Assembly (NCBI GenBank): GCA_964583985.1
Contig: CAZOYD010000023.1
Coordinates: forward strand, 1-48,326
From: an uncultured archaeon
GTDB lineage: Archaea; Asgardarchaeota; Lokiarchaeia; Sigyniarchaeales; SOKP01
DNA: 48,326 bases
Direction of reading: 5' to 3'
Every line of letters starts with the position of its first letter. The stretch's first letter is position 1. Positions 18,533 through 24,791 of the stretch are shown one piece after another. The translations under genes and the position numbers were made by a program. The notes below the pieces were generated by a model. It saw only the letters and a list, made by a program, of their open reading frames with translations, did not search any database and had not been told where the DNA came from.

Positions 18533-19840
18533 TCACATCTTGATGGAATAAGGGAATTCTTGTGTAAATTCTATTAGATTCTGATCTGGATCATTGAACT
18601 TAATATTGAAAATAATCGTAAAATCTCCCGCTTCAGTTGGTTTGATACTCAGTTCCCATTTCATCTCTTCATTTTTCCTAAGAGAATATATTTGTTTATT
18701 AATAGTCCCGCGCATAACTTTTAATTCTTCTGGAAAATCAATATTAATATTTACATCAAGTGCCTCCCCTTCGCTTTTATTCTCAATAAGAACCTCTAAA
18801 GGAAAACTTTGTCCAATAAGGGGCGGTCTTAAGTTTTTAAGAGATAAATCTAATGAAGGAGGCGGAGAGATCAAGTTTGGTTTAATCACATCTGTAGTAT
18901 GAACAAAATAGAGAAGTTCATCCAACTCAAATGTTAAAGAAAATGGTCCGATAAAAGGTTCATCCATTTGAAAATGTGGTTTTAACACGAAATCTAATTC
19001 AATATCGGAACCAATAGTTATATCTATTGGTAGTTTAGGCTTTTTATTTATGGAAAGATTATCAGATAATTTGAAATGGAATTGAGTAATCCTTATGCTT
19101 TGCAATTCGTTTTCAAAAAATAGATCTTTAGATAATTGATAAAGAACACCAATTTTTACTGATATGGTCATGTTTATTATATCATTAGTGGTATATGAGG
19201 TTTTATCTAAAACAATCGTGGAAGTTAAATCTAAAAGGGAATTCGATATAAGTAATATTTTTTTTAACAATTTTTTTTCGATGGGAGTCAATTTAAAATT
19301 CTCAACATTTTCTCTAATTTCAGCAAGTAAGACTTTATTTTTATTGCGCAATACTATCGTCAAATCAGTAACAAGTTGAATTAAAGGAGAGTTTTTAAAG
19401 TAATCACCATCTACTTTTTTCTGATATTTTTTAATGAAATCAAGGCCTTCCTCTTGTTTCGATTCAATGCATGAGCATAGATAAACCAAAACTGGGAATA
19501 AAATAAAATTTATTTGTTTATCTGAATTTTTTTTTTCCTTAGATATTATATCTAATGAATCTCTATAAATTTTTTTAGCTTCAGTATAATTTTTTGCATA
19601 TAGACAACAATCTCCCGCTAATCTATTGAATGACACGGCATCTTCATAATTTTCCATTTCAATTTTTGTTTGAGCTCCATGAAGATAAGATAGTTTAGCA
19701 TTATCATAATCCTCCAATTTCATAAAGTTATTTCCTGCTTGGTAGAATGCTTTGCCAGATTTTTTAAATAATCGTGCTTTAAAAAAATTTTCCGCTTTTG
19801 ATAACTGGTTTTGAGCTTCAGTTCTTGGATCTTTTCCCAT
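18533..19840 (-). CDS. TPR/SNAP-like helical N-terminus plus two C-terminal Ig-like beta-sandwich domains
   Basis: Repeated A...Y/F..AG helical motifs in residues 1-100; C-terminal IGQSFPLEVLIENKSEGEALDVNINIDFP...WELSIKPTEAGDFTIIFNIKF. Confidence 0.6.
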   Translation of the reverse strand: MGKDPRTEAQNQLSKAENFFKARLFKKSGKAFYQAGNNFMKLEDYDNAKLSYLHGAQTKIEMENYEDAVSFNRLAGDCCLYAKNYTEAKKIYRDSLDIISKEKKNSDKQINFILFPVLVYLCSCIESKQEEGLDFIKKYQKKVDGDYFKNSPLIQLVTDLTIVLRNKNKVLLAEIRENVENFKLTPIEKKLLKKILLISNSLLDLTSTIVLDKTSYTTNDIINMTISVKIGVLYQLSKDLFFENELQSIRITQFHFKLSDNLSINKKPKLPIDITIGSDIELDFVLKPHFQMDEPFIGPFSLTFELDELLYFVHTTDVIKPNLISPPPSLDLSLKNLRPPLIGQSFPLEVLIENKSEGEALDVNINIDFPEELKVMRGTINKQIYSLRKNEEMKWELSIKPTEAGDFTIIFNIKFNDPDQNLIEFTQEFPYSIKM

Positions 19841-19961
19841 AATGCTTTTACTTACTTCGAAATAAATTGATTAATTGTTAAATTAAGTGAAAGATCAATT
19901 TTTATCTTTTTTCAAAGTATTAAGAAAAATAAAATAAAATAAAAAAAAATTCAGAATTGGC

Positions 19962-20576
19962 TTAAAAAGCCATTAAAATTAATAGGAATCCTACCATTAT
20001 GATTGTACCACTAACAGTTGATACCCAAGTAAAGATCACAAAACCAATGATGAGCACAACCCACCATGTGTAAGGAACTTTGATATCGATTTTATCGAAT
20101 AATGTTAGAAGTAAAATGATTGCAAATATAATTCCCACTATTGCAATTGCAATATATCCCCCCATAATAAACATTATTGACTCATAGATTGCCCAACATG
20201 CTCCAATTAACGTGACTATTTTAGAAGCAACATAAGTCTTATTCTGGCTTAATATCTCAATGATAGCAGCGGTAATTATTAAAATTCCTGCTAAATAAGA
20301 TGGTCCTACTAAATATTCAAAGAGAATTAGTAAGCATCCAATAATTAATAGAACCCACCAAATATAAGGAATCTTTAGTTTCTTAAAATCAATGATTTCT
20401 AATGAATCGAATATCACAAAGGCAATAATCAATCCTATAACACCTAACAAAATAGCTAACCAGTACGTTGTGTAGAAATAATTAATGCTATCTTTAATTA
20501 GAACTAATGTACCTATGAGAGCAACAACTCTGGAGGCGGTAATTCCAACTTTAGAGCTTTCACCCATATTTATCAC
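19962..20576 (-). CDS. Polytopic membrane protein with an internal two-fold repeat
   Basis: About 8 hydrophobic segments; ASRVVALIG/ASKIVTLIG and KIPYIWWVLLIIG/KVPYTWWVVLIIG. Confidence 0.75.
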   Translation of the reverse strand: MINMGESSKVGITASRVVALIGTLVLIKDSINYFYTTYWLAILLGVIGLIIAFVIFDSLEIIDFKKLKIPYIWWVLLIIGCLLILFEYLVGPSYLAGILIITAAIIEILSQNKTYVASKIVTLIGACWAIYESIMFIMGGYIAIAIVGIIFAIILLLTLFDKIDIKVPYTWWVVLIIGFVIFTWVSTVSGTIIMVGFLLILMAF

Positions 20577-20660
20577 TTTTTATAAATATTATATCCTAAA
20601 TCTGATTAGACTTAGAATATGAGTATAGCTAGAATTTATCGTATTTAATACTACCTATTA

Positions 20661-20683
20661 AAAGTTTGATAGGCTCAAACTTT
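20661..20683. repeat. Perfect 9-bp inverted repeat (terminator hairpin or operator)
   Basis: AAAGTTTGA-taggc-TCAAACTTT downstream of the SECIS and upstream of the membrane-protein gene. Confidence 0.55.
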
Positions 20684-20716
20684 AAAAAATTAAAAAATAA
20701 TGGTTAAAACATTAAC

Positions 20717-20786
20717 ACCGAAACCATTGCTTAATGATTAGTCTTCTTGTGACTACGGTTTTTTCACAAAAGTCATACTTATCGGT
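20717..20786 (-). ncRNA. Eukaryote-like SECIS element in the mvhD 3' UTR
   Basis: Minus strand reads AUGAC-UUUUGUGA-AAAAACCGUAG-UCACAAGA-AGAC: AUGA/GA core (20776-20773 and 20743-20742), 8-bp stem, A-rich loop and outer ACCGA/UCGGU pairing. Confidence 0.8.
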
Positions 20787-21248
20787 TTATTTCTTTTTTT
20801 TCCCTTTGACATCGTCCTTCTCTTTAATAGAGTCAGAAAGTCTCGTGGGATTGTTACCTAAATTTTCAATTACTTCTGAAATACGGGTCACTTCTTGTTG
20901 AAATCTTTGACCTTCTGCAGCACTACAGTGAAACATTTGGATTCGTTCTGGATTCAATCCCGCTGTTTTTAGGATCTCTTTGGTATATTCCACATTTTTC
21001 GCAGCAACGAGATTGCCAGTTTCATAATCACATTCACCTTCATATCATCCTGCGACAATAACTCCATTAGCTCCCTTTCCTATAGCCCTCATCATCAAAC
21101 TTGGCGTGACTCTACCCGTACAATTGATTCTAATCGGTCTGATGGTTGCAGGATATTGTGCTCGGATGGTTCCAGCCATATCTCCTGCTCCATATCCTCA
21201 TTTCCAACACATAAACGCAATAATCTTTACTTGATCTTTTACAGTCAT
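20787..21248 (-). CDS. mvhD: Hydrogenase iron-sulfur subunit MvhD/VhuD, selenoprotein with 2 Sec
   Basis: MTVKDQVKIIAFMCWK-U-GYGAGDMAG...IRINCTGRV...GANGVIVAG-U-YEGECDYETGN...GLNPERI; in-frame TGA at 21198-21200 and 21045-21047; GAGGT SD 9 nt upstream (alternative ATG at 21257). Confidence 0.9.
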
Positions 21249-21263
21249 ATTTTTCATACCTCT

Positions 21264-23234
21264 CTAAATTTCTTCAAGAATTGCATCTATTTGAGATTCA
21301 TATTGGGGTTCACGATAGTATCTAAGAGTAATAGCCTCAGAAGGACAATTAGACAAGCAAGACCCACATCCTCGACAGAGAATCTCATCTACATCTGCAC
21401 CGTCTGGTTTTAATGAAATCGCATTATAAGGACAATTTAATTCGCACAAACCACATTTTGCACATTTTTCCTTATCTACAGTAGCCCGAATCAGCATTAT
21501 CCTGTATTTATCTTTTCCCATTATACGGCTTACTGATGACGCGGCAGCTCTTCCTTGGGAAATTGATTCTGAGATCGATTTAGGACCTTGTGCTACTCCG
21601 GCTAATACAATACCAGGAATTTTTGTGTCAATTGGATTTAAACGTGAATGAAATTCCTTGAAAAAACCATCTTGACTATTTTCAAGCTTTAATAACTTTC
21701 CAATTTTCTCAACACCTTTTGCAGGCATCATTGCACAAGATAAAACCACTAAATCAAACTCGATTTCCTTTAAACCAGAACTTGAAAGAGTATTTTGCAT
21801 TATCACTTTAAGATTATGGGTTTCTGGATCTTCATTAATTTTCGAAATATTCGTCCGGACGTATCTTATTCCTTCCTTCCTTGAAGCTGTATAATATTCT
21901 TCATAATCCTTCCCAGCTGCTCTAATATCCATGTATGCTACACTGATATCTGCATCGGGATAGTGTTGTTTGATTAATTTTGTATTCTTAATTGAAATCA
22001 TACAACACACCCCAGCACTACAGTATGTTTGCTTATTTAAATCTCGGGATCCTACACATTGTATGAATAGTATGCGCTTTGGAGTCTTTCCATCTGATGG
22101 TCTGGCAAGATGTCCTACTGTCGGACCGTTAGGAGCAAGTAATCTTTCAAGTTTCATTTGAGTTATTACATTAGGATATACGTTATAACCTAAATAACCC
22201 GTTTCAGGCTCATATTCATCCCAACCTGTCGCTACTATGATGGTGCCTACTTTGATTTCTATAATCTCATCTTCTTGATTAAAATCAATAGCGTTCACTT
22301 CACAAGCTTTTTCGCATAATCCACATTTGATACATCTACTCATATCAATTTGAGCTTTTGAGGGAACAGCTTGAGCAAATGACACGTAAATTGCCTTTCT
22401 AGTATTCATGCCTTCATTGAATTCATCGTATCCATAGGATGGACAAACTTCAAAACAAGCTCCACATCCATTACAATCGCTCTTTACATACTTAGCTTTT
22501 TTTCTAATTTTCACATTAAAATTTCCAATGAATCCAGAAACATCTTCAACATTGCTGTAAGTATATAGGTTTAAATTGGGAGTTCGAGCTGCTTGAAGCA
22601 TAACCGGACCGAGAATTCAAATGCTACAATCATCAGTAGGAAAAGTTCGATCGAGCATAGCCATCTTACCACCTATTGTAGGGCTTTTTTCCACGAGATG
22701 CACTTCAAATCCCTCATCGGATAAATCAATTCCAGCACTCAATCCAGAAACTCCGCCTCCAATTATTAAAGCCTTTTTTGTTATATCAACTTCTTTTACA
22801 AGTATTTCTTCTAACAAACTGGCCCGAGCAACTCCAGATTTTATTGCATCTTCTGCGGTTTTTTGAGCCCCCACCTTATCTTGGCGATGTACAAAACTTG
22901 CATGTTCTCGAATGTTAACAAATTCTAAAAACGAAGGATCAATATTCATAGATTCAAGAACGCTTTTGAAAACGGGTTCATGAGTTTTAGGAGTACATGA
23001 TGCTACAACAAGGCGATTAGCGTTACTTTCATTCATTTTCTCTTTTATAAATTCCGCTCCTGGTTCAGTGCATAAACTGATATAATCTGATGCATCAACC
23101 ACATTAGGTAAGGTCTTGGCAAATTCAGCGAGTGCTTTAGTGTCAATGATTTCAGCAATATTAATTCCTCAAGCACAAACACTAACAAAAATCCGTATTT
23201 CTTCAGTATTTTTTGTAATCTCTGCTTCTACCAT
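21264..23234 (-). CDS. hdrA: Heterodisulfide reductase subunit A, selenoprotein with 2 Sec (656 aa)
   Basis: One frame from ATG 23234: RIFVSVCA-U22-GINIA (TGA 23169-23171), SCTPKTHE, NIREH, GGGVSG, DRTFPTDDCSI-U206-ILGP (TGA 22617-22619), QCVGSRD, YCSAGVCC and four ferredoxin motifs. Confidence 0.93.
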
Positions 23235-23421
23235 TGCATATTCTACCTTTTTATTTTTTAGATATCCTCCTACATTAATTACATAATATTTCAAAATATT
23301 TTTTACTTTTAAAATATCTTATGAGAAAAAATAATTTTAAATCAAAAATCTATTATATATCTTTTATAAGTTATCAATTTAAAAATGGTTTGATATTAAA
23401 AAAAAATAATTCGTTTTAATA

Positions 23422-23862
23422 ATGCTATTAAATTTATTTCAAGGAACTGGGAGCGCCTCAATGGGTGAAATAATTACTTACTCACTTGTTGCTGGGGTAT
23501 CATTTCTCTTTATGATATTATTTTTAAAATTAGGATTAAAAGTGGTTAAATCAAGGACTAAAAAGGGATTTAAATGGTTAGCTATAAGTATTATTATGCA
23601 ATTGTTTATGGTTGCCTTGTTAGCTTCTCCATTTATTCTTATAGGATTTGCAGGGGGATTTAATGATAAAGGTCCTTCGCCAGGTTTGATAATATTCGCC
23701 ATCATAATAGCAATATTTATGGATCTAAATATTATTAATATCCTTCATAAAACGGGATTGAAAAAAGCTATTTTATGTTTTTTTCTGATGATCGTTCCAC
23801 TCGTATTTGGAGGTATTATTGGGTTTTTCGTGGCGCAATTTAGGTTATTTATTCCAATCTGA
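23422..23862 (+). CDS. Four-helix membrane protein of unknown function
   Basis: 146-aa ORF with four hydrophobic segments. Confidence 0.65.
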   Translation: MLLNLFQGTGSASMGEIITYSLVAGVSFLFMILFLKLGLKVVKSRTKKGFKWLAISIIMQLFMVALLASPFILIGFAGGFNDKGPSPGLIIFAIIIAIFMDLNIINILHKTGLKKAILCFFLMIVPLVFGGIIGFFVAQFRLFIPI

Positions 23863-23864
23863 AA

Positions 23865-24791
23865 TTAATGTAATTTCACCATTTTATTTACGTCTCTATT
23901 CATCTTTTCAACTTCAAATCTTGCTGCTTTTCCGTATTGTGAAGGAGAGAACTGTTTATAATTGTTATATGCATAATTCACGTTTCTTGAAGAATTTATA
24001 ATTCCACCTAAACCTTGTTTATTAAAACATGATATTATATTATCCATTTTAGCTCCTTGGGCGCCATATCCTGGCATTAAAATAAAGGCATTTTTCACTA
24101 CTTTTCTAATTGCGTTCAATTCTTCTGGAAAAGTAGCACCGACAACAATACCTAAGTTATTGAAATTAGAGAACGTGGATAAATTTTTTCCCCATAAATC
24201 CACGAGTCTTGCCATTTGCATATAATTTCGTTCGAGCGTTATATTTTTAACCACTGCTTGGGTTACGGTCTTAGCAACATCTTGAAGGTTTATACTAAAT
24301 AAATCTTGGAAATCTTTACTACTCGGATTTGAAGTCTTCACTAATATAAATAATCCTTTTTCAGGATATGTGTCTAAATATGGTTGAATTGAGTCAATTC
24401 CTAAATATCCATTTAAAGTGCAAGCATCCGCTTTATATTCGTTAAAAGTTGAATCAGCATAGGCTTTCGATGTTGAACCGATATCATTACGTTTAGAATC
24501 CAATATGACTAATAAATCATTTTTATGAGCATATTTAATTGTGTCTTTTAATGCACTTATGGCACCATATTTTTCATAGAAAGCGATTTGCGGTTTGATT
24601 ACAGGAATCAAATCATACGTATTGTCAATAAGTGTTTTATTAAATTCAAATATAATTTTACTTGGATTCTTATATTCATCAATTAAATAAGTGGGAATGT
24701 GTACTTCATTCTCCAATGATGGATCAAGTCCCATACTTACTATGCTTTTCTTCTCATATATAGATTCAATTAAATTTTCAATAAAAGTCAT
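23865..24791 (-). CDS. pyrF: Orotidine-5'-phosphate decarboxylase (type 2)
   Basis: MGLDP, KPQIAFYE, DSKRNDIGST, LVKTSNP, VVGATFP, PGYGAQG and NSSR. Confidence 0.95.
   Translation of the reverse strand: MTFIENLIESIYEKKSIVSMGLDPSLENEVHIPTYLIDEYKNPSKIIFEFNKTLIDNTYDLIPVIKPQIAFYEKYGAISALKDTIKYAHKNDLLVILDSKRNDIGSTSKAYADSTFNEYKADACTLNGYLGIDSIQPYLDTYPEKGLFILVKTSNPSSKDFQDLFSINLQDVAKTVTQAVVKNITLERNYMQMARLVDLWGKNLSTFSNFNNLGIVVGATFPEELNAIRKVVKNAFILMPGYGAQGAKMDNIISCFNKQGLGGIINSSRNVNYAYNNYKQFSPSQYGKAARFEVEKMNRDVNKMVKLH

Follow-up and report, generated by a model that had tools for sequence, protein, structure and literature searches.

HdrA, an electron-bifurcating subunit that contains flavin and iron-sulfur clusters, is known from heterodisulfide reductase complexes, where HdrA and HdrBC together reduce CoM-S-S-CoB. 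As a selenoprotein it was earlier known with one selenocysteine (Sec), near position 200 (PMC4989117). Mariotti et al. (2016, Mol Biol Evol) then described multi-Sec HdrA proteins in Lokiarchaeota, with five Sec positions and with hdrA and vhuD arranged in pairs: vhuD always lies directly downstream of hdrA, the hdrA stop codon is never UGA, and a single element named lokiSECIS (9-bp stem, 11-nt loop), found after vhuD only, serves as many as six UGA codons spread across about 2 kb (PMC4989117). The survey has been widened to 227 Sec-using Asgard genomes, in which no selenoprotein sequences are more abundant than those of HdrA and FrhD/VhuD, and these two have a SECIS in common; the positions of the multiple Sec residues in HdrA are not discussed in that study (PMC11227280). 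That Asgard archaea carry several Sec residues in HdrA, recoded from a distant eukaryote-like SECIS, has in other words been in print since 2016.

Here we describe an hdrA gene from a 3.8-Mb MAG of Promethearchaeota (Lokiarchaeia) with an estimated contamination of 5%. The gene lies in a window of 48,326 nt, the whole stretch of DNA that was analysed, which has a G+C content of 30%. Judged from its sequence, the region 21264..23234 of the window is one intact hdrA gene recoded at two UGA codons. The best explanation, to which we assign a probability of about 0.9, is that this hdrA is the first cistron of an hdrA-vhuD selenoprotein unit, and that both of its in-frame UGA codons, UGA-22 and UGA-206, are read as Sec by way of a shared downstream SECIS.

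The hdrA frame and its neighbourhood

Translated on the minus strand from 23234 to 21264 with TGA read as U, hdrA is a single frame of 656 codons followed by a terminal TAG. Its only internal stops are two TGA codons, codon 22 at 23169..23171 (minus strand), within the CxU sequence VCAUGINIA, and codon 206 at 22617..22619 (minus strand), within the CxxU sequence DDCSIUILGP. The preliminary description had reported one frame split only by these two TGA codons, and its coordinates for them were exact. Under translation table 11 the gene is listed as two ORFs, 22617..23102, which starts on a GTG at 23102, and 21264..22601, with the N-terminus unlisted. Gene callers fragment hdrA in this way; the proper record would be a single selenoprotein of 656 aa within an hdrA-vhuD unit whose genes have one 3' SECIS in common. 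The AT-rich, ORF-free intergenic region at 23235..23421 (minus strand) is presumed to be the promoter and 5' leader of that unit.

Along its entire length the read-through protein shows homology to HdrA. The NCBIfam model HdrA2 matches it with 777 bits over profile positions 1-643 of 777, a score below the cut-off of 1100 bits because the profile also spans a fused MvhD part that is here a separate downstream gene. Residues 11-653 align with the crystal-structure chain 5ODC_A, which is HdrA of Methanothermococcus thermolithotrophicus (E = 3e-203), and Pfam identifies four Fer4 (4Fe-4S ferredoxin) motifs and a FAD-binding Rossmann motif. Gap-free alignments place C20 on Cys11, U22 on Cys13, and U206 on Cys197 of 5ODC_A, which bears out the earlier claim that both TGA codons fall at conserved HdrA cysteines. 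The column of U22 is Cys in all solved HdrA chains. U206, the predicted canonical Sec of HdrA, corresponds to Cys205 of M. marburgensis HdrA (8RVU, chain 8rvu_a) and to X (Sec), residue 197, of M. maripaludis HdrA (9SFI, chain 9sfi_A); Sec at the second site in methanococcal HdrA, likewise part of the preliminary description, is present in a solved structure. The segment C203-S-I-U206 aligns with the FAD-adjacent CxxC pair (Cys194/197 in 5ODC, Cys202/205 in M. marburgensis), with Sec replacing the second Cys. The N-terminal domain contains four Cys/Sec residues in all, at positions 20, 22, 55, and 80. AlphaFold2 applied to the single HdrA sequence gave a mean pLDDT of 32 and was uninformative.

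Downstream on the same strand is vhuD/mvhD, a gene of the FlpD family (20787..21257, minus strand; 156 codons; Pfam FlpD, 145 bits). It begins 6-15 nt past the hdrA stop, and the second ATG (21248) is perhaps the start that is conserved. It has two in-frame UGA codons, codon 20 (21200-21198) and codon 71 (21047-21045). Each of them is aligned to an X (Sec) of M. maripaludis VhuD (9sfi_K), and U20 aligns exactly with Cys16 of M. marburgensis MvhD (9sw2_D). Owing to these two TGA codons, vhuD is absent from the ORF track. The gene upstream of hdrA, which shares its strand, belongs to the OMP-decarboxylase family. For two ORFs that lie directly downstream of the SECIS, at 18533-19840 (minus strand, 435 aa) and 19962-20567 (minus strand, 201 aa), Pfam gave no hit at E<=1e-5. 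The hdrA-vhuD pair is isolated within the window, and neither hdrBC nor mvhAG genes adjoin it.

UGA codons among orthologues and paralogues

The orthologue set comprised 81 sequences, namely the window and 80 orthologous loci of other assemblies; these loci share 75-93% identity and all come from MAGs of Promethearchaeota/Promethearchaeia (Lokiarchaeia-type Asgard). Codon 206 is TGA in 81 of 81 sequences, with no Cys codon among them. At codon 22, 77 sequences have TGA, three have TGT, and the one other sequence is truncated at this point. Such agreement goes well beyond what chance would produce. Exactly five columns of the alignment contain Sec: 22, 55, 80, 206, and 601. Column 55 has TGA in 32 sequences and a Cys codon (TGT/TGC) in 48, whereas Cys codons prevail in column 80 (77 vs. 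four TGA) and in column 601 (77 vs. two TGA). Neither TAA nor TAG was found at codon 22 or codon 206 in any of the 81 sequences, so that site 22 is TGA or TGT and site 206 is TGA only. Together with the full-length homology to HdrA, these counts support the di-selenoprotein of 656 aa proposed in the preliminary description. The combination of U22 and U206 is the commonest Sec pattern, occurring in 42 of 86 sequences.

Paralogues within the same genome carry both states of the two sites. Three further hdrA genes (45-52% identity) have TGA at both. One of them (L014, C13:36626-38548) is paired with a vhuD, after which the strict motif found no SECIS; another (L015, C11:13658-15589) has a third TGA, at column 80 (SAUTPRTH), and, like the last of the three (L016, C60:15691-17631), it is followed by vhuD and a lokiSECIS. 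Two Cys-type hdrA paralogues have TGC or TGT at both sites. Sec therefore alternates with Cys among the orthologues at codon 22, and at codon 206 the Cys form is found in these two paralogues and in solved structures.

Two further features of the hdrA-like genes were observed. An in-frame TGA lies two codons ahead of the hdrA ATG (U-Y-A-M-V) in 31 of the 86 sequences (L029-L036 and others); it is presumably a plain upstream stop, although its position is curious given a SECIS on the same mRNA. The genome also contains clusters of fused or tandem HdrA-like ORFs of ~900-1160 aa (C1:10212-20770, C5:52573-55560, C11:2738-9192, and C13:46734-49880), in which the FAD domain, the N-terminal part, and the C-terminal part match in permuted order. 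One of these fused ORFs (L024) has both an internal TGA and an internal TAA. These ORFs are similar to the fused HdrA reported from ANME and acetogens (PMC9012536).

SECIS, Sec machinery, and decoding of the two codons

A SECIS of the Loki (eukaryote-like) type is predicted at 20736..20783 (minus strand), with a core at 20776..20742 and a short flanking lower helix. The core consists of AUGA, a 9-nt stem arm, an 11-nt loop opening with AAAAA, a second 9-nt stem arm, and GA. No other match to this motif occurs in the window. The element is located 10 nt past the vhuD stop (TAA), at distances of about 2.4 kb (UGA-22) and about 1.8 kb (UGA-206) from the two hdrA codons. Its predicted fold has the expected hairpin and the short lower helix, at a stability (z = -1.6) that is not unusual by itself; eight of the nine stem positions are paired, and a C.A mismatch is found at the stem base. 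In most orthologous loci vhuD is likewise followed by this element, and 62 copies were aligned. Across these 62 loci all nine upper-stem pairs vary on both sides, and the covariation score is 0.515; shuffles scored 0.23 and slid controls no more than 0.14. The copies were picked by a motif that demands at least seven of nine pairs, and the figure of 89% paired positions is inflated for that reason; the compensatory changes and the fixed position of the SECIS are unaffected by this selection.

A second SECIS between hdrA and vhuD was considered and rejected, as the gap is 6-15 nt and the motif is single in the window. Positions 19500-24500, scanned against Rfam with E values of up to 10, yielded no SECIS family, only chance matches to CRISPR-DR and snoRNA families. 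To our knowledge, none of the Rfam SECIS models matches the eukaryote-like Loki element, and the null result was therefore not counted against the SECIS. In every orthologous locus the hdrA stop codon is TAA or TAG, never TGA.

The components of the Sec machinery that the preliminary description had named were recovered in the genome. It encodes a tRNA-Sec (59 bits, above the Rfam cut-off; ARAGORN anticodon TCA), SepSecS (372 bits) about 200 nt downstream of the tRNA-Sec, and SelD (184 bits), which has an in-frame TGA of its own. A PSTK-like gene scored 158 bits, under the curated NCBIfam cut-off of 290.5 bits. The EFSec candidate is located on the tRNA-Sec contig, 4 kb away; SelB is its best family (235 bits vs. 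131 for EF-Tu), at a score slightly under the bacterial SelB cut-off. A second, weaker SelD/AIR-synthase-like match (L009, C123:3977-4528; 42 bits), also with an in-frame TGA, is possibly a second selD-type selenoprotein gene, and several selD copies have been mentioned for Loki genomes (PMC11227280).

From these features we infer selenium insertion at both hdrA codons. An EFSec-type factor would bring Sec-tRNA(Sec) to UGA-22 and UGA-206 of the hdrA mRNA, and both would be decoded as Sec. The single eukaryote-like SECIS past the vhuD stop would direct both hdrA codons, acting over the distances given above and across cistrons, and the same element would also serve the two UGA codons of vhuD.

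A narrower reading would have UGA-206 alone as Sec, with UGA-22 a real stop or part of the 5' leader and a protein that starts downstream and lacks the CxU motif. The weak conservation of residues 1-12 (39% identity) would fit such a downstream start, as would the GTG-started ORF that table 11 lists from 23102. Residues 23-44, however, are constrained like the remaining protein (81% amino-acid identity, 69% of changed codons synonymous) and yet the start codons all lie beyond them: after codon 22, an ATG, GTG, or TTG first occurs in frame at codon 54 or later in 47 of the 81 sequences, window included. A segment under purifying selection without a usable start implies that translation has to pass through UGA-22. 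In 77 of the 80 orthologues the ATG at 23234 is kept, and the three orthologues with TGT at site 22 show that this codon is translated. A start at codon 45 would moreover lose two of the four Cys/Sec residues of the N-terminal cluster domain. We consider it extremely unlikely that the protein begins downstream of UGA-22.

The fragmentation of hdrA under the standard code, in a genome that is a MAG, could also point to a pseudogene, or to TGA codons that are assembly or sequencing errors, with the ORF fragments being real. Against this, about 80 independent assemblies share the identical two TGA codons, as do three paralogues within this genome, neither site has TAA, TAG, or a frameshift, and purifying selection flanks each TGA; as far as sequence comparison can tell, such a reading is effectively refuted. 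Sec/Cys ambiguity at UGA occurs in some systems, which leaves some room for read-through by another mechanism, either near-cognate insertion of Cys or Trp or a reassigned code. We regard this as very unlikely, given a complete Sec pathway, a conserved SECIS at the expected place, and the consistent avoidance of TGA as the hdrA stop codon, which fits a SECIS that would recode such a stop (an argument made in PMC4989117). The reassigned code, with TGA as a sense codon, was rejected outright: TGA is the ordinary stop of 5 of the 32 long ORFs in the window, and the code is therefore not reassigned.

Positions of U22 and U206 and comparison with known systems

The HdrABC-MvhAGD structure was reportedly solved in 2017, after the 2016 report of multi-Sec HdrA. 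In that report the HdrA Sec columns were taken not to be cluster ligands (PMC4989117). The HdrA structures that have appeared since 2016 place the canonical Sec in a Cys pair between the shuttle cluster and the bifurcating flavin. In HdrA, the N-terminal domain carries HA3, a [4Fe-4S] cluster described as the mobile “shuttle” of the low-potential branch (PMC6019823, PMC12350162, PMC13580544), and Cys197 of the partner HdrA has been described as one HA3 ligand (PMC9012536). In M. marburgensis, Cys202 and Cys205 of HdrA (C203 and U206 here) and Cys16 of MvhD are “conserved additional cysteines” between the MvhD [2Fe-2S] cluster and FAD, and an unidentified density is bound by Cys202/Cys205 (PMC13580544). 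A feature interpreted as a selenylsulfide lies between cluster A3 and FAD in the M. maripaludis protein, held by Sec197 and a cysteine (PMC13518236).

Any chemical role of the two Sec residues is inferred. U206 sits in the CxxU pair of the thioredoxin-reductase-like domain, beside the bifurcating FAD, and U22 in the N-terminal domain that bears HA3. The preliminary description called U22 an Fe-S ligand, a role that it may or may not have at HA3. If Cys197 of the partner is one HA3 ligand, then one of the four Cys/Sec residues at 20, 22, 55, and 80 is left over.

In a profile-profile comparison, HdrA's N-terminal domain and VhuD align with E = 1.3e-4 and a probability of 54%, while Pfam FlpD does not match HdrA; the alignment suggests that the two are paralogous folds. 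C55 falls on VhuD C46 and C80 on VhuD U71, and a low-confidence extension places C20/U22 on VhuD C17/U20. Sec-prone columns are found at matching places, HdrA 22 and 80 with VhuD 20 and 71. We read MvhD Cys16, the “additional conserved cysteine,” as a non-ligand; U22 stands opposite Cys16 in the profile alignment and may for this reason be its counterpart, with no fixed ligand role. The full proposal is that U22, as the counterpart of Cys16, forms with U206 of the partner a Se-Se or exchangeable-ligand junction between HA3 and the bifurcating FAD. In such a junction, U22 could exchange with the partner-subunit U206 at the fourth HA3 coordination site during arm movement. We offer it as a possibility that is, on present evidence, rather unlikely.

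If it were true, VhuD U20, HdrA U22, HdrA U206, and possibly VhuD U71 would line one thiol/selenol relay. Asgard HdrA would then be a natural “all-selenium” relay, with Sec columns 22, 55, 80, and 206 marking the relay residues. The relay in question is the step that recent cryo-EM papers call unsolved in flavin-based electron bifurcation, and knowing which HdrA columns hold Sec in Asgard archaea could help to locate it.

Among described proteins, the single-Sec HdrA of Methanococcales and Methanopyrus (M. maripaludis, 9SFI; PMC13518236) belongs to the same family and has the same architecture and the same CxxU Sec, U206 being equivalent to Sec197; M. maripaludis VhuD also has Sec at the same two positions as VhuD here. 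The methanococcal HdrA differs in having Cys at the N-terminal CxC site (VCYCG in 9sfi_A) in place of CxU. The methanogen SECIS is of the archaeal type (PMC4989117), in contrast to the eukaryote-like element found here, and the present host is a non-methanogen in which hdrBC and mvhAG do not flank hdrA-vhuD. MvhD/VhuD (FlpD) proteins for their part have a [2Fe-2S] cluster and a CxxU motif, whereas the HdrA domain has a [4Fe-4S] cluster and CxU.

The multi-Sec HdrA of Lokiarchaeota (PMC4989117) shares with the present protein a length of ~660 aa, the canonical Sec near 200, and the location of Sec at conserved Cys columns. Both have a same-strand vhuD directly downstream, one lokiSECIS, and an hdrA stop codon that is never UGA, and both the published proteins and the present orthologues have five Sec columns. 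In all essentials the two agree. One difference concerns HdrA.2 of that study, in which an extra Cys follows the C-terminal Sec; here, column 601 is followed by Pro or Phe. Because TGA occupies the CxU site in 77 of the 81 orthologues and in all four Sec paralogues, that site can hardly be absent from the five Sec positions of Mariotti et al. The N-terminal Sec, called the less familiar of the two in the preliminary description, deserves that name with respect to methanogens only, and not for Lokiarchaeota, where multi-Sec HdrA was published in 2016; U22 with U206 is the commonest pattern in the present orthologue group. Since the count of five Sec columns, a SECIS common to both genes, and the rule on the hdrA stop codon all reproduce the earlier report (PMC4989117), the finding is real but already known, and the two-Sec hdrA described here is a confirmed further example of published biology rather than a discovery.
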